A DNA stretch of 22,230 nucleotides, from NCBI GenBank assembly GCA_031370785.1, contig JANMQY010000055.1, positions 1 to 22,230 of the forward strand. The letters run 5' to 3'. Source of the DNA: Candidatus Eiseniibacteriota bacterium (GTDB lineage Bacteria > Eisenbacteria > RBG-16-71-46). Of the stretch, positions 10,292 to 22,230 are shown one piece after another. A program made the position numbers and the translations under genes. The first letter of the stretch is position 1. Each line of letters starts with the position of its first letter. The notes beneath the pieces are model-generated. The model made no database searches. It was given only the letters and a program-made list of their open reading frames with translations, and was not told where the DNA came from.

Positions 10292-10406
10292 GTTCAACCG
10301 TCAATCTCTCTTCGGCAGGAGTGATCGTCATGGAAGCACCTTTCCCTTTCCTTGGTAGTCCGCCGTCAATCGTTCACGCCGGTGGGATCAACAGCGTCGG
10401 CGCATC

Positions 10407-10478
10407 ATGGTCGGAGCGACGGTGCTGATCGTCGGAATCGTTCTGGCACTGGTGGTCGTTGGGATCTGGAGACGGTGA
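10407..10478 (+). CDS. Possible single-TM micro-protein or remnant (MVGATVLIVGIVLALVVVGIWRR)
   Basis: Clean 19-residue hydrophobic stretch flanked by Arg residues, ending 5 nt before the next gene. Not in the ORF track. Confidence 0.35.
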   Translation: MVGATVLIVGIVLALVVVGIWRR

Positions 10479-10483
10479 CGAGC

Positions 10484-11053
10484 ATGCTGGGCATGAAGGT
10501 CCTGATCGCCTTGATCGTGTGTGGGATTGCCTCTACCGCTTGCGACAGCCACGCGCCACCGTCCGCTGTGAAGCGCGTCGATCCTCCAGCTCCCGCGATC
10601 GTCTTCGACACTGGCCGAGGGACTGGTCAGTACGACCAGATGACCTACTTCAAGTACGAGAGTGAGCTCGCGCTTACGCCGCAGGTAGACGTGGCGGTAC
10701 GAGGCATCCGGCCCCAGATGTACTACTGCAATGGAACGTCAGGATTCATTGCGATCATTCGGGACGAGCATTATCAACCGCTGGCAGTCGAGGCCGGGCT
10801 GGTCGATGGTCACGGGCAATTGACTCCCACGTTTTCTGATCGTCATCTCGACCCGCCGCTGACCCTCACGGCCGGAAAGACCTATCGGATCGTGATGGAG
10901 GTGTGGACGACCAAGTCGGTGGGCATCTACACGACCGGGAACAGGACTGCCGGCACGGTCGCCGGCGTGGGCGAATACGTGGTGAGCTACGCGCGCTCCG
11001 ACACCGCCGATCATCAGGATCGCGGCGCGATTGCGTTTGAGCTGCTCGAGTAG
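10484..11053 (+). CDS. Hypothetical exported protein/lipoprotein, beta-rich
   Basis: MKVLIALIVCGIASTA-C signal/lipobox-like start (ATG 10484 or 10493), Pro-rich linker, beta-sandwich-like LTAGKTYRIVM segment. Confidence 0.65.
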   Translation: MLGMKVLIALIVCGIASTACDSHAPPSAVKRVDPPAPAIVFDTGRGTGQYDQMTYFKYESELALTPQVDVAVRGIRPQMYYCNGTSGFIAIIRDEHYQPLAVEAGLVDGHGQLTPTFSDRHLDPPLTLTAGKTYRIVMEVWTTKSVGIYTTGNRTAGTVAGVGEYVVSYARSDTADHQDRGAIAFELLE

Positions 11054-11064
11054 CCGAGCCTGCC

Positions 11065-12114
11065 TCACTCCGCTCGATACACCACGACCCAGCGGCGGAC
11101 AAGTGCACCGGCGCCCGCACCAAACAGGGCACCGAAGGGCGCGGCGATGCCGGCGCCGACCAGCGCGCCTTCCGCGACGGAGACATCTCCTGAACCCAGC
11201 GCGGCAACTGCGGCCAGACCGAACAGGGCGCCCACGGCAGCGAAACTTCCCGCCCCCACAAGCGCACCATTGATCCCCGAGCCCCCACGCATCCGGACCT
11301 CGTCGATCGCTTCCCACGGAATGCGCTCGGGAACTCTGCGATGGGCCCACTCCCCGCGCGCCTTCGGATCCGGGTGCAGACCTTCGAGGCCTGTTGGGCC
11401 CGCCAGATCCGCGAACCCCTGAAAAGTTCCGAATGAACCTGTCACACGGATCACGTCATCTTTGCCGATGCGGTTCGAAGTGCGGATCCTGGCCGGCGAC
11501 ATCGCGAGACGCGGCGCCGGCACTGCGGTCCCGAGCGGAGCCGGCGCCACAGTCTCTAGCGGAGCCGACGACGCGCGCGGAGCTGCCAACGCGAGCGGAG
11601 CTACTGACAGCATCCTGACGGACGTGTCGGCGACGTACCAGTTGCGCTCGTGTTTGAAGCGCTCGCCGTACGCCCCACCAAGCCACGCGCCGACGCCTCC
11701 CAGCACCGCGAAACCCAGCATCGCGTCGTTTCCGCCGTCACCGTTCGGTGCGCCGAGTGCATTGCCCAGACCGGCGCCCGCGAGGCCCAACACGATTGAC
11801 CCCATCACTCTTCCACGCTGTGCTCGGGTCACCACCTCGTCGATCCGCGCGATCTCGGCCCACGTGAGCGGGTCGTGTGGAAGGGGCGCGTTGCCGGGGG
11901 CGGTGAGTCCGTGCAGTCCGAGCTCGTCGATGCGACGCGCCTTGAGCGTGAGCCGCGCCGAGTCGGTCGCAACGCGCAGCCACGGGTGACTGCGATTCTG
12001 CTTCTGGAATTGGAACAGGAGATTCGGCGAAGGCTGAGCGAGGGTGTCCGACGAGGCGGCAGCGCGGGCTGGCATGATCGCGAGTAGCAGCGCGACCAAG
12101 ATTGCGCGGGGCAT
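11065..12114 (-). CDS. Hypothetical secreted protein with two tandem (beta-domain + glycine-zipper) modules
   Basis: Signal peptide (…ARAAA); two similar modules, each ending in GxxxG helices, separated by a Pro/Ala linker. Confidence 0.72.
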   Translation of the reverse strand: MPRAILVALLLAIMPARAAASSDTLAQPSPNLLFQFQKQNRSHPWLRVATDSARLTLKARRIDELGLHGLTAPGNAPLPHDPLTWAEIARIDEVVTRAQRGRVMGSIVLGLAGAGLGNALGAPNGDGGNDAMLGFAVLGGVGAWLGGAYGERFKHERNWYVADTSVRMLSVAPLALAAPRASSAPLETVAPAPLGTAVPAPRLAMSPARIRTSNRIGKDDVIRVTGSFGTFQGFADLAGPTGLEGLHPDPKARGEWAHRRVPERIPWEAIDEVRMRGGSGINGALVGAGSFAAVGALFGLAAVAALGSGDVSVAEGALVGAGIAAPFGALFGAGAGALVRRWVVVYRAE

Positions 12115-15099: not shown

Positions 15100-15936
15100 T
15101 CACTTCTTCGCCATGGCCTGCTTCGCAAAGGTCGAGAGCACCATCGCCAGCGTATCGGGCTGGTCGCTCGCCATCAGCACGGCGCTGTTGGCGATCCGGC
15201 GCGGCGGGTGGCTCGCGGGGTCCTCCCAACCCAGCTCCTTGCCGATGACCGCCCAGTCCTTGTCGGGCGGGAACCGCTTGTCGCTCATCACCACCAGCAC
15301 GGGAGTCTTGAGGTTCTTGACCGTGCGCGTCGCGTCGGCGTCGAGCAGACGACGCAGGTACGCCTTGATCGTAACCGGCGGCACCTGCGCCACCATCGCC
15401 TGGACCTGCACGCCCTGCGCCGAGTCGCGTCCCATGCGCGAGAAGATCATGCTCGTCACCTGGTCGTAGTTCTGCTCCATGTACTCCAGGAACTGCTTCT
15501 TCTGCTGGTCGTCGATCGGGAGCGGCGACTTGAGCACGACATCGATCAGCACCAGGCCCTTCTGATGCTCGGGGTGCGCGCCCGCCGACATGAGTGCGAG
15601 CAGCGCGCCCACGCCCTGTCCGACCACGACCGTGCTCTCGGGGTGCTGCTTCGCGACGACCAGGTCGAGCGCCTCGGCGGCCGCTTCGAGCGAGAACGGA
15701 TCGGGCAGCGGACTTTCGCCATGGCCGGGCAGATCGACCATCACCACGTGGTAGTTCGAGAGCAGCTTGCGCGCGGTCGGCATCCAGCCGAGGCGCGCGC
15801 CGCCCAGACCGTGCACCAGCACCAGCGTCGGACCGCGCCCGAACTCGGTGACGCGAAGCGTGACTGGCGGCGTGATCGCCGCCGCGGCCAGCGACGCGGC
15901 CAGCGTGAAGCCGCACAGCGTGAGCGCAACCTTCAT
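15100..15936 (-). CDS. Secreted alpha/beta-hydrolase-fold pseudoenzyme (nucleophile Ser and catalytic His absent)
   Basis: Signal peptide MKVALTLCG…AAAA; VHGLG and DLPGHG retained, but the elbow reads GQGVG (15607-15621) and the His loop reads NSAVLM. Alternative start TTG 15951 has a GGAGG RBS. Confidence 0.85.
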   Translation of the reverse strand: MKVALTLCGFTLAASLAAAAITPPVTLRVTEFGRGPTLVLVHGLGGARLGWMPTARKLLSNYHVVMVDLPGHGESPLPDPFSLEAAAEALDLVVAKQHPESTVVVGQGVGALLALMSAGAHPEHQKGLVLIDVVLKSPLPIDDQQKKQFLEYMEQNYDQVTSMIFSRMGRDSAQGVQVQAMVAQVPPVTIKAYLRRLLDADATRTVKNLKTPVLVVMSDKRFPPDKDWAVIGKELGWEDPASHPPRRIANSAVLMASDQPDTLAMVLSTFAKQAMAKK

Positions 15937-16008
15937 GGATCGTGTGTTCAATGTGACCCTCCGTAGTGGCCTTGGAAACGGGCGCGATCTTACTCGCGAT
16001 CTTCGTGC

Positions 16009-16038
16009 TTGCGTTACTGCACGTATGTGCAGTAGCCT
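16009..16038 (+). promoter_or_regulatory. Sigma70-type promoter for the mutagenesis operon (-35 TTGCGT, 18-nt spacer, -10 TAGCCT)
   Basis: Hexamers at 16009-16014 and 16033-16038, ending 18 nt upstream of ATG 16057. Confidence 0.55.
16015..16034. promoter_or_regulatory. Putative LexA operator (SOS box) TACTGCAC-GTAT-GTGCAGTA
   Basis: Perfect 8-bp inverted arms with a 4-nt centre; fills the promoter spacer and overlaps the -10; lies upstream of Y-family and DnaE2 polymerase genes. Confidence 0.78.
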
Positions 16039-16056
16039 GCTGCTCGCCAGGTCCCT

Positions 16057-16311
16057 ATGCGACTCGAAACCATCGATGAAGCCGTCCCCGTGCGCGCCGA
16101 CTTCCAGGGCGGCGCCGTCACCCCGCTGGCGTTCCGCCGCGGGGGGCGCGAGCACCGGATCGTCCGCGTCAACGCGCGCTGGATCGATCGGGCGCCGCGG
16201 CATCCGTACTTCTTTTTCTCGGTGACCGACGAAAGCGGCGACGTCTACCAGCTACAGCTGCAGAGCGGAGACCTGGTGTGGCGGCTGGACTCGGTAACCC
16301 TGGAGGGCTGA
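16057..16311 (+). CDS. Small stand-alone DUF6504 / ImuB C-terminal-domain-like beta protein
   Basis: 84 aa; P.AF.RGGR.HRIVRV..RW……FFSV.DESGDVYQL……WRL matches the pattern of DUF6504 and the ImuB C-terminal domain; first gene after the SOS box. Confidence 0.72.
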   Translation: MRLETIDEAVPVRADFQGGAVTPLAFRRGGREHRIVRVNARWIDRAPRHPYFFFSVTDESGDVYQLQLQSGDLVWRLDSVTLEG

Positions 16312-16418
16312 TGACGCCCCGTTCGACACCGCGGCGCCGGGCGGGGCGCAACGCGCGCCTCTCCCCTCTGCGACGCACTCGATGGCACCCGCAGAAGCAG
16401 AGCAAGGCGCCGCGGTGA
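16311..16418 (+). CDS. Putative 35-aa Arg-rich micro-ORF (MTPRSTPRRRAGRNARLSPLRRTRWHPQKQSKAPR)
   Basis: GGAGG RBS at 16302-16306; TGATG overlap with the upstream stop and a second TGATG overlap with an in-frame dinB ATG (16418). Confidence 0.4.
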   Translation: MTPRSTPRRRAGRNARLSPLRRTRWHPQKQSKAPR

Positions 16419-17767
16419 TGGACGAAGTCTCCGGGAGCGGTGCTGTGCCCGACGCCGGAATCGCGGGGATTACCGGGCCCGGCGGCGCAGCCCGCTCCGG
16501 AGAAATATCCGCCGCCGAGGCGGAGCGCGATGACGCGCCCGCACGCGACGACGCGATGCGCCCCGAGCGCTTGGTCCTGCACGTGGACATCGATGCGTTC
16601 TTCGCCGCGATCGAGCAGCAGCGCGATCCGCGCCTGGCCGGCCGCCCGGTGATCGTGGGCGCGGGCGTCATCGCCTCGTGCTCGTACGAGGCGCGGCGCT
16701 TCGGCCTCAAGGCCGGCATGCCGCTTTCCGAGGCCACGCGGCTGTGCCCCGATGCCGTGATCGTCGAGGGCCACGCGCAGGTATACCGCTGCTTCGCCGG
16801 GGAGATCTTCGCGCGGTGCCGCGAGATCTCCCCGGCGGTCGAGACCTATCTCGACGAGGCGTACTGCGATCTCAGCGGCACCGTGCGCCTGCACGGCGAC
16901 CCGCTGCTCGCGGTTGCGGCGCTCAAGCGCGACATCCGCGCCGCGACCGGGCTTGGCGTGACCTGCGGGCTCGGGCCCAACCGCATGCTCGCAAAGCTGA
17001 TCGGCAAGACGGTCAAGCCCGATGGCCTGGCGCGCATCCAGGCGCACGACGCGCACGCGTTTCTCACCGCGCGCCCGATCGAGCAGCTCGCGGGCGTGGG
17101 CCACTCGCACGCGCGCACGCTGCGCTCGATGAACCTCAACACCATCGGAGACCTGCGCGCGCTGCCGGCCGACACGCTGGAAGCGCTGTTCGGCGCGCCG
17201 GGGCGGCTGCTCCACCAGCGCTGCCGCGGCCTCGACACCGCGGTGGTGAGTGAGCGTGAGGTGCCGCTCACCCTCTCGCGCGAGACCTCGTTCCACCGCG
17301 ACACCGCCGAGCGCGTCGAGATCGAGGGCATGCTCGAATACCTCGCCTCGCGCGCCTGCCGCGCGGCGCGCGATCTCGGATTGCGCGCGCGCACCGTGTC
17401 GCTGCGGCTGCGCTACACCGACGGCGAGAGCGCCGAGCGGGCGCGCTCGCTCGCCATGCCGAGCGACGCCGATCCGGCGGTGGTCGATCTGACGCGCACG
17501 CTGCTCGCGCAGCTCTTCACCCGGCGCGTCGCGCTCCACGCGGTCGGCGTCACGCTTTCCTCGTTCACGCGCACCGGCGTCGAGCAGGGGTCCCTGTTCG
17601 ACGAGCCCGAGGCCGGCCGCCAGGCCGCGCTGTACCACGCGTTCGACGTGGTGCGGGAAGCGTACGGGCACGGCGTGCTGGTGTCGGGCCACGCGTTGCA
17701 CCTCAAAGGTCGGCTGGAAGAGGATCGCCACGGCTTCGTGCTGCGCACCCCGTCGCTTACCCGCTAG
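16418..17767 (+). CDS. dinB: Y-family DNA polymerase IV, catalytic residues intact
   Basis: HVDIDAFFAAIEQ, SCSYEARRFG, YLDEAYCD, NRMLAKL..K..KPDG, GVG HhH, little-finger SRETSF; clamp motif QGSLF; RecA-NT-like tail. Start uncertain (16382, 16418 or 16556). Confidence 0.93.
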   Translation: MDEVSGSGAVPDAGIAGITGPGGAARSGEISAAEAERDDAPARDDAMRPERLVLHVDIDAFFAAIEQQRDPRLAGRPVIVGAGVIASCSYEARRFGLKAGMPLSEATRLCPDAVIVEGHAQVYRCFAGEIFARCREISPAVETYLDEAYCDLSGTVRLHGDPLLAVAALKRDIRAATGLGVTCGLGPNRMLAKLIGKTVKPDGLARIQAHDAHAFLTARPIEQLAGVGHSHARTLRSMNLNTIGDLRALPADTLEALFGAPGRLLHQRCRGLDTAVVSEREVPLTLSRETSFHRDTAERVEIEGMLEYLASRACRAARDLGLRARTVSLRLRYTDGESAERARSLAMPSDADPAVVDLTRTLLAQLFTRRVALHAVGVTLSSFTRTGVEQGSLFDEPEAGRQAALYHAFDVVREAYGHGVLVSGHALHLKGRLEEDRHGFVLRTPSLTR

Positions 17768-17799
17768 CCCATCCCCACTCCCCTTTTCGGAGGCCCCGC

Positions 17800-18180
17800 A
17801 TGCAACCCTCGACGTTCCTCGGACTGCGCACCGTCATCTATCCGGTCGCCGACCTCGCGAAGGCAACCGCCTGGTATCGCGTGGTGTTGGACATCGATCC
17901 CTATTTCGACGAGCCGTTCTACGTCGGCTTCAACCTCGGCGGCTTCGAGCTGGGCCTCAATCCCGACGAGGGCGCGCCGCCGTCCGGAGTGGGTGGCGCA
18001 GTCGCCTATTGGGGTGTCGAGCGCATGGCCACAGCGTGGCCGCGTCTGCTCGCGCTCGGCGCGACGTCGGTGAGCGAGCCGCAGGACGTCGGCAGCGGCA
18101 TCTTCGTGGCCACGGTGCGCGACCCGTTCGGCAATCTGATCGGCGTGATCGAGAACCCGAATTTCCCGAACACCGCCTAG
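17800..18180 (+). CDS. VOC/glyoxalase/bleomycin-resistance family protein
   Basis: GGAGG RBS; GLRTVIYPVADLAKATAWY, YVGFNLGGFELGL, DVGSGI.VATVRDPFGNLIGVIENP. Confidence 0.9.
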   Translation: MQPSTFLGLRTVIYPVADLAKATAWYRVVLDIDPYFDEPFYVGFNLGGFELGLNPDEGAPPSGVGGAVAYWGVERMATAWPRLLALGATSVSEPQDVGSGIFVATVRDPFGNLIGVIENPNFPNTA

Positions 18181-18211
18181 AGCCGCGATCGTGCGAAGCG
18201 GTCCGGGACGT

Positions 18212-18255
18212 CGCGGGCGAGCCGGGTCCGGGGCCATTTCGCGGCTCGACCCGCG
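18212..18255 (+). terminator. GC-rich hairpin after the VOC gene (no U-tract)
   Basis: CGCGGG-CGAGCCG pairs with CGGCTCG-a-CCCGCG (13 bp, one bulge). Confidence 0.35.
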
Positions 18256-18293
18256 CTCACGCGAAGGGGGCGACGTGCCGATAATGAGCCATC

Positions 18294-19022
18294 ATGACCT
18301 CCCCCGCTCCGCTTCGCCCGAGTCGCGCGCCGCTGCTGGTGCGCCTGTTCACGGCACCGCTTACACCCGCCCAGGTGGAGCGCCGGGCCCGCCAGACGCT
18401 GCGCCCGGCGCTCCAGCTGATGGTCGTGCTCGTGCCGGTAGCGCTGCTGAGCTGGCTCGGCTACGTCGCCTTCGACCTGTGGTCGCAGGTGCCGCCATCG
18501 CTGGCCCCGCGCCACCGCGCCGAGGCGCTGTGCTTCGCGCTCGCGCATCCCGACCTGGTGACCGGGGAGCGCTTCCAGCCGCCGATGCGGATCGAGCCGA
18601 GCGCGGCGATGATGCGCGACCGGTTCACTCCCGAGACGCCCGCCGCGGTGGCACTGCGCAACGTGATGCATCTCGACGAGAGCATGGTGATCCGCGAGTG
18701 GCACCGCCGGGCGGGCGACTTCGACGTGACCTGCCTGTGGCTGCGCCTGCCGGCCGGCAGCGGCGCGGGAGAGGGATCCGCGGGCGAAGCGCGCCACTGG
18801 CTGGTGCTGAGCTGGATGGAGGACGGCGACCTGGCGGTGTGCAACTTCCGCTTCGCGGGCTCGGGCTACAGTCTCTCGGATCAGGAGCGCATCTGGGGCC
18901 AGCGGCTGGTGAACCGCGTGCTGGTCACCGACAACTTCCGGGCTGGCGTGCTGCCGGCCGTGCGCCTGCGCGGCGCGCGCGACGGCACCATGCCGGTGTT
19001 CGGCCCTCCCTCGGCGCGCTGA
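18294..19022 (+). CDS. Hypothetical single-TM membrane protein
   Basis: 242 aa, GC3-rich codon usage, one TM (LMVVLVPVALLSWLGYVAF) followed by a globular domain; GATAAT 8 nt before the ATG. Confidence 0.72.
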   Translation: MTSPAPLRPSRAPLLVRLFTAPLTPAQVERRARQTLRPALQLMVVLVPVALLSWLGYVAFDLWSQVPPSLAPRHRAEALCFALAHPDLVTGERFQPPMRIEPSAAMMRDRFTPETPAAVALRNVMHLDESMVIREWHRRAGDFDVTCLWLRLPAGSGAGEGSAGEARHWLVLSWMEDGDLAVCNFRFAGSGYSLSDQERIWGQRLVNRVLVTDNFRAGVLPAVRLRGARDGTMPVFGPPSAR

Positions 19023-19029
19023 GCGAACG

Positions 19030-19047
19030 CGGGAGCGCGCGCTCCCG
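19030..19047. terminator. Perfect 18-bp palindrome between convergent genes
   Basis: CGGGAGCGCGCGCTCCCG lies in the 26-nt gap between stops at 19022 (+) and 19049 (-). Confidence 0.5.
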
Positions 19048-19048
19048 A

Positions 19049-19510
19049 TCAGGCGGGCTTCGGCCCGTCGGGACGGTCCGCCAGACAGATCAGGGTCTGC
19101 GTGCCGAACGCGCAGCGGCTCGATCGCCCATCCTTCTCGACCACGACCTCGAGCGTGCACACGGTCAGCGTCCGCCCCGAGCGCATGACCGATCCGGTCG
19201 CGATCAGGCGCGTGCCGTCGGCGGGCGCCAGCAGGTGCATGTGGTACTCGACGCTCAGCACCGAGGATCCTTCGGGCATGAGCGTGTAGCCCGCGTAGCC
19301 GCCCGCGCTGTCGGCGATGGTGCCCACGATCCCGGCGTGGAAGTAGCCATGCTGCTGGGTCAGATCCTCGCGGAACGGCAGCTCGATTGCGACCACGCCG
19401 GGCTCGACGCGGGTCAGCCAGGCCCCGAGCAGTCCCATGATGCGCTGGCGCTCGAAACTGTCGCGCACGCGCTTCGCGTATCCGGGATCGCGCGGCTGGA
19501 ATCCGCTCAT
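19049..19510 (-). CDS. PaaI family hotdog-fold thioesterase
   Basis: GGAG RBS before ATG 19510; LTQQHGYFHAGIVGTIADSAGGYA, VLSVEY…LLAPA, SGRTLTVC motifs. Confidence 0.92.
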   Translation of the reverse strand: MSGFQPRDPGYAKRVRDSFERQRIMGLLGAWLTRVEPGVVAIELPFREDLTQQHGYFHAGIVGTIADSAGGYAGYTLMPEGSSVLSVEYHMHLLAPADGTRLIATGSVMRSGRTLTVCTLEVVVEKDGRSSRCAFGTQTLICLADRPDGPKPA

Positions 19511-19608
19511 CGGGCGCTCCGTCGTCAGGGTGAGGATCGTGCGCGGGCGCGGCACGGCGCACGGCGGGCGCATGCTAGCACCGGCGGCGCGCGCGAAGCA
19601 GCCTCGCG

Positions 19609-22230
19609 ATGAGCCGGTTCACGCCTCTGCGCGTGCGCTCGCACGGCTCGCTGCTCGAGGGCACCGCCTCGCCCGAGGCGCTGGTGACGCGCGCGCTCGA
19701 GTACGGCTGCAGCGCACTCGCGCTCACCGACCGCGACAACCTGTACCTCGCGATCCGCTTCTGGAAGGCGGCCCGCGCCGAGGGACTGACGCCGCTGCTG
19801 GGCGCCGAGCTGACCGCGGGCGAGCGCGACGCGCCCGGGCAGCGTGCCGCGCTGCTGCTGCCGCTCGACCGGCGCGGGTATGCGCGGCTGTGCGCGCTGC
19901 TCACCGCGCGGCACCTCGATGCGGACTTCGATCTGGTCACCGCGCTCGGCGAAGGCGCCGCCGGTCTCCTTGTGAGCGTCGTGACTCCGGCGCTCGCCGC
20001 GGCGCTGCGGGCCGCCGGCATGCCGGCGGCCGCCTCTGCTCGCGGCGCCGGGCCCGCCGGCGGCCTGTGGCTCGGCGTGCGCGGGCTTCCGCACGAGCGC
20101 ACCCGGCTCGCCGAGCGGCTGGATGCGGCGCGCGCGCTCGGTGTGCCGGCGGTCGCGACCGGCGACTGCGTGATGCTCGAGCCGCGCGATCGCGAGGGAC
20201 ACGCGATCGCGGTGACCGCGGCGCGCGGCGAGCTGCTCGAGCGCATGCCGCCAGCGGCGTTCGCCGCTCGCGAGGCGTGGCTCGCCTCGCCCGCCGAGTG
20301 GACGCGGCGCGTGCGCGCGCTGTGCTCGGGCGCCGGAAGGCCCGAAGCGGCCGACATGCTGCTCGCCCACAACCACGAGCTGGCCGCGCGCTGCCGGCTC
20401 GAGCTCGAGCTGGGCACGCCGATCTTCCCGCGCCATCCCGACATCGACGGCGAGGGCGGCCTGGCGCGGCTCGAGCGCGTCGGGCGCGAAGGGCTGCGCC
20501 GACGCTACGGCAGCGATGATCCGCGCGCCGGCCGCCGCGTGCGCGACGCGCGGGAGCGTCTCCGCGAGGAGCTGACGATGATCGAGCGCATGGGCTTCAC
20601 CGACTACTTCCTGCTGGTCGCCGAGATCGTGGGCTTCGCGCGCGCGCGCGGCATCCCGAGCGTGGGCCGCGGCTCGGGCGCGAGTTCGATCGTGGCCTAC
20701 GTGCTCGGCATCACCAACGTGGACCCGATCCGCTACGGGCTCTGCTTCGAGCGCTTCCTCAATCCCTCGCGCCGCGATTGTCCCGACCTCGACATCGACC
20801 TGTGCTGGAAGCGCCGCGACGAAGTGATCGCACACGTGTACGACGCGTACGGCCACGATCGAGTCGCGATGATCTCGACCCACGCCACGCTCGGGGCGAG
20901 ATCGGCGTTCCGCGAAACCGCCAAGGCGCTCGGCGTGCCCAACGCGCGCGTGAACGCGCTGGCGCGGCGCGTTCCGCGCGACCTGGAGCCGCCGTACCGC
21001 GAACACCTGCAGGCGCTGCCGCACGCGCGCGACGTGGACTGGCGCGAGCCGACGCTGGCGCGCGCGCTGGCGCTGGCCGAGCGACTGTCGGGCGCGCCGC
21101 GGCACCTGTCGGTCCATTCCGGTGGCGTGGTGATCGCGGATCGGCCGCTCACCCACTACGTGCCGCTCGAACGCGCCGCCAAGAACGTGGTGGTCACCCA
21201 GTTCGAGATGCGCGCGATCGAAGCCATCGGGCTGGTCAAGATGGACCTGCTCGGTAACCGCGCGCTCACCGAGATCGGGGAATGCATCGAGCTGGTGGCG
21301 CGCCATCGCGGCGTCACGGTGGATCCGGACCGTGTGCCCGACGATGATCCGATGACCGCGGCGCGGGTCTGCTCGGGCGACACCCTCAACTGCTTCCAGC
21401 TCGAATCGCCGGCGATGCGCCACCTGCTGCGCATGTTGCGCGCGCGGAACCTCGAGGACGCCATCGCCGCGGTCGCCCTGATCCGGCCCGGGCCCGCCGG
21501 CTCATCGGGGGTCGAGGGGAGCGACCGCAACACCAAGGAGACATTCTGCCGGCGCCAGCGCGGCCTCGAGCCCGCAGCCTATCTACACCCGCGCCTCGAG
21601 CCGGTGCTGCGCGACACCCACGGCCTCATGCTCTACGAAGAGGACGTGCTGCGCGCCGCGGCGGCGATGACGAACCTCACCCTCGCCCAGGGCGACGACC
21701 TGCGCCGCGCGATCGGGCATGCGAGCGGCGACGAGGAGTTCCGCGCGCTGGAGCGCGGGTTCGTCGGGCACTGCGCGCACGCCGGGGTCAACGAGGCCAG
21801 TGCGCGCGCGGTATGGCGCGACCTCACCCGGTTCGCCGCGTACGCGTTCTGCCGCGCACACGCCGCGGGCTACGGCACGCTGGGCTGGCAGACCGCGTAT
21901 CTCAAGAGCCACTTCCCGACCGAATACGCGGTCGCGATCCTCAACCATCACGCCGGGATGTATCCGACCTGGGTGCACGTCGAAGACCTGCGCCGCCACG
22001 GCGTCGAGTTCCGCGCCCCGTGCGTGAACCGCTCGGAGTGGGACACGACGCTCGAGGTGGCCCAGGACGAGCTCCGGGGGCCGCAGCCGGGGCATGCCTT
22101 CGGGGTGCGCCCGAGTCGCCCGGCAGCTCCGGGGGTCGCAGCCGGGGGGGTGGCGCGCGGGGGGGCCCCGGGGGCCCGGGGCCCCGGGGGGGGGGCGGGG
22201 GGCGGGGGGGAGCGGGCGGGGCCGGGGAGG
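19609..22230 (+). CDS. dnaE2: Error-prone DNA polymerase III alpha subunit (DnaE2/ImuC-like), 3'-truncated by the window end
   Basis: Open frame from ATG 19609 (MSRFTPLRVRSHGSLLEGTASPE) with no stop. Degenerate PHP domain; GRGSGASS, FERFLNPSR, catalytic PDLDID (20782-20799) and KMDLLG (21238-21255), HLSVHSGG, FQLESPAM, IRPGP, AYAFCRAHAAGY, YLKSHFP. Confidence 0.92.
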   Translation, partial: MSRFTPLRVRSHGSLLEGTASPEALVTRALEYGCSALALTDRDNLYLAIRFWKAARAEGLTPLLGAELTAGERDAPGQRAALLLPLDRRGYARLCALLTARHLDADFDLVTALGEGAAGLLVSVVTPALAAALRAAGMPAAASARGAGPAGGLWLGVRGLPHERTRLAERLDAARALGVPAVATGDCVMLEPRDREGHAIAVTAARGELLERMPPAAFAAREAWLASPAEWTRRVRALCSGAGRPEAADMLLAHNHELAARCRLELELGTPIFPRHPDIDGEGGLARLERVGREGLRRRYGSDDPRAGRRVRDARERLREELTMIERMGFTDYFLLVAEIVGFARARGIPSVGRGSGASSIVAYVLGITNVDPIRYGLCFERFLNPSRRDCPDLDIDLCWKRRDEVIAHVYDAYGHDRVAMISTHATLGARSAFRETAKALGVPNARVNALARRVPRDLEPPYREHLQALPHARDVDWREPTLARALALAERLSGAPRHLSVHSGGVVIADRPLTHYVPLERAAKNVVVTQFEMRAIEAIGLVKMDLLGNRALTEIGECIELVARHRGVTVDPDRVPDDDPMTAARVCSGDTLNCFQLESPAMRHLLRMLRARNLEDAIAAVALIRPGPAGSSGVEGSDRNTKETFCRRQRGLEPAAYLHPRLEPVLRDTHGLMLYEEDVLRAAAAMTNLTLAQGDDLRRAIGHASGDEEFRALERGFVGHCAHAGVNEASARAVWRDLTRFAAYAFCRAHAAGYGTLGWQTAYLKSHFPTEYAVAILNHHAGMYPTWVHVEDLRRHGVEFRAPCVNRSEWDTTLEVAQDELRGPQPGHAFGVRPSRPAAPGVAAGGVARGGAPGARGPGGGAGGGGERAGPGR

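Follow-up and report, generated by a model that had tools for sequence, protein, structure and literature searches.

Variants of the bacterial translesion mutasome that lack ImuA have been described (PMC6511836, accessible text). In the accessible part of a recent study (PMC12926913; 2026), a complex of DnaE2B, PolY, ImuB-C, and RecA is one of 11 modeled complexes and is reported only in Actinobacteria. Models of this composition reach a mean interface predicted template modeling score (ipTM) of 0.84 in five species, ImuB-C contacts the DnaE2 PHP domain in the Mycobacterium tuberculosis model, and the genome list, as far as it is accessible, does not contain Eisenbacteria. PMC3765255 defined the ImuB-C domain, including the stand-alone version encoded next to DinB or DnaE2, and its accessible text also proposes that ImuB-C may bind damaged DNA. 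The ImuA-free complexes are known as predictions, and we found no experimental test of them in the accessible parts of this literature. Here, we analyze a cassette encoding ImuB-C, PolY, and DnaE2 in a 22,230-nt stretch of DNA (the window), which is the entire contig C22 of a 3.44-Mb genome (68 per cent G+C, rated 100 per cent complete). Source records label the homologs, apart from a few records under other names, as Ca. Eisenbacteria, a lineage not mentioned among the matches listed in our literature searches.

As judged from sequence comparisons, the cassette is most likely an ImuA-free DnaE2 mutasome of an already predicted type. A preliminary description of the locus had proposed that its architecture is novel. 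This went too far, because the composition is already catalogued and modeled (PMC12926913, accessible text), and novelty is therefore limited to the lineage and to the PolY subfamily. What is new at the level of sequence is a separate DnaE2B branch of Ca. Eisenbacteria and Planctomycetota, a fixed PolY tail, and a remodeled PolY active site. The operator, the 84-aa gene, the Y-family gene, and the DnaE2 gene are all located where the preliminary description had placed them:

16009-16038, + strand: putative promoter, with -35 element TTGCGT (16009-16014), an 18-nt spacer, and -10 element TAGCCT (16033-16038), based on the sequence and on the layout in relatives
16018-16031: palindrome TGCAC-N4-GTGCA, TGCACGTATGTGCA, inside the promoter spacer, a likely LexA box
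16057-16311, + strand: stand-alone ImuB-C (DUF6504-like) protein, 84 aa, predicted to be all-beta
16382-17767, + strand: Y-family polymerase (PolY/DinB) of a DnaE2-linked subfamily (Pfam IMS, E = 4.5e-39, and IMS_C), with its start at 16382 or 16556
16586-16858, + strand: PolY catalytic region, with Asp at 16586-16588 and Asp-Glu at 16853-16858
17585-17599, + strand: clamp-binding-type motif QGSLF, conserved in alignment A4
17615-17689, + strand: RecA-NT-like helix and turn in PolY, with the helix predicted at residues 350-370
17732-17764, + strand: fixed PolY C-terminal tail GFVLRTPSLTR
19609-22230, + strand: DnaE2B-like C-family polymerase (Pfam PHP, alpha, and finger), running to the contig end and short of about 250 C-terminal residues (complete relatives have 1040-1211 aa)

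A contig from a second study covers 15900-21992 at about 95 per cent identity, and the layout is therefore not an assembly artifact. Two runs labeled as RNA yield flat contigs of 5-12 kb, also at about 95 per cent identity, which are not a sign of transcription.

The three genes are linked well beyond this genome. In 30 of 40 relatives, a single contig carries ImuB-C, polY, and dnaE2 in that order; most of the remaining relatives are cut by contig ends, and one shows only the second cassette described below. Outside the family to which this genome belongs, 12 of 14 loci have polY and dnaE2 reading frames that overlap, by 4-44 nt (start codons were picked by hand), and the genes that separate the two are variable additions within the family. 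The neighborhood survey thus bears out the expected co-occurrence of the three genes, which are often translationally coupled. Among 24 loci of more distant families, all three genes lie within 8 kb in 11, ImuB-C and polY in seven, and ImuB-C only in six. Scanning whole genomes for the PolY tail gave 147 candidate stretches, of which 142 were confirmed and 80 were kept; 12 of those kept are labeled Planctomycetota, with dnaE2 next in 11, ImuB-C before in nine, and both in eight. Across 206 genomes of the phylum, we found the ImuB-C family in at least 182 (both paralogs counted), the tail in at least 113, and the DnaE2B core in at least 103. These tallies are minimum values that do not amount to a test of co-occurrence, because the cut-off of E <= 1e-75 hid the cassette of one family (f18). 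That family was considered as a 'DnaE2-free' control and rejected, as it has a lexA-iPolY-DnaE2B cassette of its own: in its genomes (L246, L249, and L257), an iPolY-like gene precedes a Desulfosarcina-type DnaE2B gene, with lexA in front in two, and an ImuB-C+DinB cassette is present in addition.

The genome under study also has a second cassette (C133:117434-118974; L001), which consists of the palindrome, an ImuB-C paralog (34 per cent identical), and a canonical-looking DinB. It contains no dnaE2 and is conserved in most relatives. Searches of this genome with 15 reference ImuA, ImuB, and iPolY proteins returned nothing beyond RecA and the two DinBs; the seven ImuA and five ImuB references matched RecA and one DinB only, and a PF00817 search likewise returns two DinBs. 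The absence of imuA and imuB is thus supported by reference-protein search of a genome rated 100 per cent complete. NF033429 was above its cut-off in 0 of 41 genomes and also in 0 of 14 controls, which makes it a weak test. In a more distant member of the phylum (G043), DnaE falls in DnaE2A, and other members may therefore have canonical cassettes.

By profile-profile comparison, the 84-aa protein is a homolog of the ImuB C-terminal domain. Its AlphaFold2 model (predicted local distance difference test [pLDDT] score of 95) is all-beta with seven strands. PF20114 (DUF6504) is matched at E <= 0.1 by 33 of 41 aligned family members (best E = 7.7e-7) and by the protein itself at E = 0.056 (14.1 bits, below the gathering cut-off of 24.2 bits). 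DUF6504 is carried by five of 120 close homologs among the matches listed, describes the best Atlas clusters for the small protein, and marks the C-terminus in four of the seven annotated ImuBs fetched. Compared with ImuB C-termini in hhalign, a 169-sequence profile of the family gave a probability of 83.5 (E = 8e-6, score 33.9), whereas 40 column shuffles scored no higher than 15.6. On full-length ImuBs, the best placement of the profile is the last 88 columns, and W75, the conserved C-terminal Trp, is invariant in the 41 aligned rows. The relationship is clear in profile-profile comparison only: a plain hidden Markov model (HMM) search of the small family against seven ImuBs was weak, with 3-11.5 bits in four and no match in three (shuffled maximum of 7.5). 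The ImuB-C-like nature claimed for the protein is therefore upheld by the PF20114 matches of its family and by the profile-profile alignment; of the comparisons named in the preliminary description, the one with ImuB C-termini succeeded by profile, but DUF6504 stayed below its cut-off for the protein itself and fold searches gave no informative match (Foldseek best E = 0.22; VIA-align best Z = 6.3). No ImuB-C structure turned up in the structure libraries searched, and 'DUF6504' is absent from the searchable papers. A search for fused forms among 8,000 candidates returned two proteins of about 200 aa and no full ImuB; among 1,069 representatives, almost all of the best 150 have a length of 65-135 aa.

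The positions of the palindrome suggest that it is likely a LexA operator and that the cassette is likely under LexA control. Of 33 loci from relatives, 24 have a perfect copy no more than 100 nt from the small gene (one further locus was dropped because its upstream DNA was too short), as do 8 of 19 second-cassette loci, compared to 5 of 20,000 random 100-nt windows. Five perfect copies exist in the genome: at this locus, at the second cassette on C133, at lexA (C108), at mraZ (C127), and at one site without an assigned gene. A copy with two mismatches precedes recA, so that lexA, recA, and both cassettes have the palindrome in front of them, as would members of a LexA regulon. When one mismatch is allowed, the genome-wide count is 68 versus 53 in the control, and the evidence for the palindrome is therefore positional. 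In 15 of the 24 loci of more distant families, lexA is the first gene, directly upstream. The TTG...box...TAnnnT layout is seen again in relatives, but a sigma-70 consensus scan flagged no promoter at 16009-16038, which leaves the conserved position in relatives as the basis for the promoter hexamers. The proposed operator-bearing promoter thus stands as regards the palindrome, which is far above chance, but not as regards a recognizable sigma-70 promoter. The palindrome presumably resembles the LexA box of Fibrobacter succinogenes, for which the accessible text of PMC3091678 and PMC8565304 gave no motif. Two further observations concern the box. The perfect copy about 90 nt upstream of mraZ (C127:6502; L258) hints at LexA control of a division and cell-wall cluster, and an IS200-like Y1 transposase gene lies directly after lexA (C108:8645-9139; L003:2208-2663), behind a box with one mismatch. 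As a whole, the survey outlines a putative SOS regulon for the uncultured phylum Ca. Eisenbacteria.

The PolY encoded by the cassette belongs to a subfamily that we define by the tail GF[VI]LRTPSLT[KR]. Among 119 distinct PolY open reading frames (ORFs) in the fetched GTDB loci, 99 have the tail and 20, all paralogs, do not; in the tail group, the G, the V/I, and the stop position are also fixed. Subfamily PolYs are 48-76 per cent identical to that of this contig in the 19-row alignment A4. Both catalytic aspartates and the SYEAR-type motif that binds deoxynucleoside triphosphates are kept in all 99, and the catalytic pair is Asp-Glu in 91 and Asp-Asp in eight; since the search pattern required the first catalytic motif, fully decayed members would have been missed. 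The PolY of this contig has all three residues (D, D, and E). At the same time, the finger loop is five residues shorter and one residue is missing before the catalytic Asp-Glu, each in 98 of the 99, and the Ser at position -2 of Asp-Glu is found in one of the 99 versus 20 of 20 paralogs. Both gaps recur against the solved Pol IV chains 7yll_A and 4ir1_F. The preliminary description had called the enzyme an 'active DinB', correctly noting the Asp and the Asp-Glu but overlooking the subfamily-wide deletions in catalytic hairpin and finger loop. We consider that PolY probably keeps some polymerase activity, a reading made likely by the residues kept but not safe because of the remodeled loop and hairpin and the Asp-Asp variants.

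Beyond the catalytic core, QGSLF fits the QxxLF clamp-motif consensus (PMC12926913, accessible text), and the RecA-NT-like segment, which has the expected location and pattern, matches the RecA N-terminus at E = 7e-4 (score 20-21; shuffle maximum 19.3). Similarity to most relatives begins at the alternative start, 16556; the upstream start is favored because the ATG at 16556 is altered in a strain that is 95 per cent identical.

The distribution of the tail suggests that it follows DnaE2 rather than ImuB-C. The tail is absent in all 20 of the paralogs that are linked to ImuB-C and free of DnaE2. Locus L217, the sole exception to the shortened loop and hairpin, has the order lexA-polY-dnaE2 and the tail, with no ImuB-C found in its genome; it is the first branch of the PolY tree and does not join the main group of the DnaE trees. 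Much the same holds for L254, which combines dnaE2 with a variant tail and a long loop and has no adjacent ImuB-C. Because the DnaE2-free cassette is tail-less while L217 and L254 have both tail and dnaE2, the fixed tail is likely a partner-binding motif that would dock DnaE2B. In Planctomycetota, a DnaE2B-like core is present in 34 of 40 genomes with the tail versus 31 of 261 others, counts in which kin are not independent and the cut-off is crude. One genome (G046) that seemed to have the tail without DnaE2B was rejected as such, its DnaE2B copy being cut by a contig end. Plasmid searches returned no tail-bearing PolY among the matches listed, and 'LRTPSLT' is absent from the searchable papers.

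The DnaE of the cassette has lost its PHP metal ligands (R-x-R replaces H-x-H) and has kept its polymerase aspartates (PDLDID and KMDLLG). A role as the replicase was rejected, as a separate DnaE1 with intact H-x-H is encoded on C142. Motifs, trees, and this DnaE1 agree with the earlier assignment of the protein as a DnaE2, an accessory polymerase. In quick phylogenies of 40 rows under a mixture model and of 46 rows under LG+G4 (after 11 redundant rows were dropped), the Eisenbacteria and Planctomycetota proteins group together, beside the DnaE2B references of Bacteroidota and Desulfosarcina; reference group labels were assigned from operon make-up, and DnaE2B is not one clade in these trees. 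A branch with a Shimodaira-Hasegawa-like approximate likelihood ratio test (SH-aLRT) support of 100 separates the Eisenbacteria, Bacteroidota, and Desulfosarcina set from DnaE1, DnaE2A, and DnaE2X. The two actinobacterial references are also apart from the Eisenbacteria and Planctomycetota DnaEs. In constraint tests on 38 rows, with groups named after the trees had been seen, a clade with the actinobacterial sequences was rejected (approximately unbiased [AU] test; P-value = 9e-14), as was a clade of DnaE2X with the Eisenbacteria DnaE (AU test; P-value = 5e-110).

The final part of the window, 22057-22230, is a G+C-rich, in-frame DnaE2 loop at the contig end with a two-copy 23-nt repeat. At the same site, relatives have inserts of 0-55 aa that are unrelated, and 32 bases of the loop are identical in G006. 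A second dnaE2 is located at C5:20103-22880 (- strand), with its 5' end cut by the contig end. Its DNA is 87 per cent identical to that of G006, a genome of another genus, and 77 per cent identical to that of a same-genus genome, and the genes after it match the dnaE2 neighborhood of that same-genus genome. This copy may represent a transfer, a strain mixture, or a chimeric assembly.

As the preliminary description had stated, dnaE2 starts about 1.8 kb after polY, but the gap holds three unrelated genes:

17800-18180, + strand: glyoxalase/VOC protein (Pfam), a variable insert that only some family members have
18294-19022, + strand: 242-aa ORF of no family, a variable insert (no Pfam, NCBIfam, or Atlas match)
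19049-19510, - strand: PaaI-type hot-dog thioesterase (Pfam 4HBT, TIGR00369), an antisense variable insert

The 242-aa ORF has a hydrophobic N-terminal stretch, and its homologs lie between polY and dnaE2 in many family members. The remainder of the contig (67-15936) carries a housekeeping and envelope set: aspartokinase, CapA-like, BNR/FlgD-domain protein, amidohydrolase, ABC transporter, and thioredoxin-like genes, two alpha/beta hydrolases, and a TPR membrane protein. The ORFs at 10352-11053 and 11065-12114 have no Pfam match.

We favor, with a little better than even confidence, a model in which ImuB-C, PolY, and DnaE2B join RecA and the clamp in a translesion mutasome induced by DNA damage, PolY taking the role of ImuB while keeping some activity. 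In this model, RecA-triggered cleavage of LexA would free the promoter. The motifs suggest that PolY would bind the clamp via QGSLF and RecA, which would replace ImuA, via the RecA-NT-like helix; the distribution of the tail suggests that it would bind DnaE2B. By analogy with published models of related systems, ImuB-C would contact RecA and the dead PHP domain of DnaE2B. We propose that DnaE2B would perform most of the mutagenic synthesis, to which the remodeled PolY may add limited or partner-dependent insertion. Several observations weigh against this model. None of 20 loci of this family has a box within 200 nt of the start of dnaE2, nor is there one anywhere in the polY-dnaE2 gap of this contig, and induction of dnaE2 would therefore need 3.5 kb of read-through. 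In this family, polY and dnaE2 are separated by unrelated genes, one of them antisense. In the more distant families, 13 of the 24 loci have no dnaE2 within 8 kb, and six of these also lack polY. The dnaE2 copy in this assembly is incomplete, the PolY active site departs from those of solved Pol IV enzymes, and the RecA-NT score (20-21) is statistically weak, being close to the shuffle maximum (19.3).

The same complex could also be built around a PolY that is a pseudo-enzyme scaffold. ImuB would then in effect be split by function between the PolY core and ImuB-C, and DnaE2B would be the only subunit to synthesize DNA. The shortened finger loop and pre-Asp-Glu segment, the near-complete loss of the Ser at -2, and the Asp-Asp variants fit such a scaffold, and Pol IV activity could come from the canonical-looking DinB paralog, which is preceded by the same box. 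We nevertheless regard it as unlikely, since both aspartates and the SYEAR-type motif persist throughout the 99 tail-bearing PolYs despite their divergence, whereas the reference iPolY and ImuB proteins have lost their catalytic residues. An arrangement of co-regulated neighbors without a joint complex, in which a Geobacter-type unit of ImuB-C and PolY (perhaps with RecA) works apart from DnaE2B and ImuB-C might bind damaged DNA (PMC3765255, accessible text), would accommodate the second cassette with its ImuB-C and PolY but no dnaE2, the inserts and gene dispersal in several families, and the small genes that adjoin lexA with no polY within 8 kb. It is hard to reconcile with the overlapping polY and dnaE2 reading frames of 12 loci, with a tail that tracks DnaE2, and with PolY and DnaE2 trees that share the early branch L217 and the main groups, and we consider it improbable.

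We give very little credence to a cassette that is decaying or uncoupled in this genome, its dnaE2 being off the SOS promoter or truncated and the C5 copy being the working one. Such a reading would agree with the 1.8-kb insert, which contains an antisense gene but no box, and with the position of the C5 dnaE2 beside genes that follow dnaE2 in the same-genus genome. It would also fit the loss of similarity beyond residue 816 and the low-complexity G+C sequence in which the contig terminates. However, the ORF extends over 874 codons without a stop or frameshift, the relatives' loop insertions occur exactly at the contig break, and contigs of three public runs match the gene as far as 21992 and extend about 1 kb further. 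Among relatives, moreover, both catalytic motifs are present in 30 of 35 loci, with four cut by contig ends and one broken.

If the favored mutasome model is placed in an evolutionary context, the cassette might be an independently assembled mutasome of Ca. Eisenbacteria and Planctomycetota without ImuA and ImuB, caught half-way from two enzymes to an enzyme and a scaffold: an ordinary PolY would first have acquired the tail that binds DnaE2B (early branches L217 and L254), followed by recruitment of ImuB-C, loss of the finger loop and hairpin serine, and loss of the Glu in two families. We offer this scenario tentatively and hold it to be rather doubtful. If true, it would be a living replay of the origin of ImuB, with a new polymerase-polymerase docking motif. 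The locus touches on two open problems, namely the handover of DNA from Y-family proteins to DnaE2 and the evolutionary path that led from an active polymerase to the dead scaffold ImuB. The lineage provides a natural gradation (tail only; tail, ImuB-C, and deletions; and these plus Glu-to-Asp), and one genome also holds a matched DnaE2-free control cassette, making the roles of the tail, ImuB-C, and PolY catalysis directly testable.

Among known systems, the Tessaracoccus lapidicaptus type (PMC12926913, accessible text) shares with the Eisenbacteria cassette a DnaE2B-like polymerase, a PolY with carboxylates, and a stand-alone ImuB-C, and both are without ImuA and ImuB; a RecA-NT-like motif is probably also common to the two. 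The order (lexA)-imuB-C-polY-dnaE2 sets the Eisenbacteria cassette apart, as probably does its DnaE, which sides with those of Bacteroidota and Desulfosarcina in a comparison that used two actinobacterial stand-ins in place of the Tessaracoccus sequence. The accessible text of PMC12926913 makes no mention of the tail or of the active-site deletions, and our plasmid searches returned no Tessaracoccus-type cassette among the matches listed. The ImuA-ImuB-DnaE2 mutasome of Caulobacter, Pseudomonas, and mycobacteria has in common a dead-PHP DnaE2, a Y-family core followed by a clamp motif, an ImuB-C domain, and probably SOS-type control and a RecA-NT-like motif; unlike it, the Eisenbacteria cassette has no ImuA, encodes ImuB-C as a separate first gene, keeps the carboxylates, and has a DnaE outside DnaE2A. 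The DnaE2X-iPolY-ImuB-C-RecA type of Kyrpidia and Deinococcus (PMC6511836 and PMC12926913, accessible texts) also has a split ImuB layout and no ImuA, and the small genes of Deinococcus and Abditibacteriota match the Eisenbacteria small-family profile, but the PolY of this type is degenerate and a clade with the Eisenbacteria DnaE was rejected. In the GeoPolY-like lexA-imuB-C-polY operon of Geobacter sulfurreducens (PMC6511836, accessible text), ImuB-C directly precedes a PolY of the active type, in many cases with lexA in front. This is also the layout of the second cassette, on C133; the Geobacter operon is without dnaE2, whereas the main Eisenbacteria cassette adds DnaE2B and the tail. The Bacteroidota DnaE2B-PolY-RecA type, the nearest reference side in the DnaE trees, likewise has two apparently active polymerases in one operon, but it has no ImuB-C, and its PolYs have a long finger loop and no tail. 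Rather than being a new kind of system, the Eisenbacteria cassette extends one described only from Actinobacteria to two more phyla.

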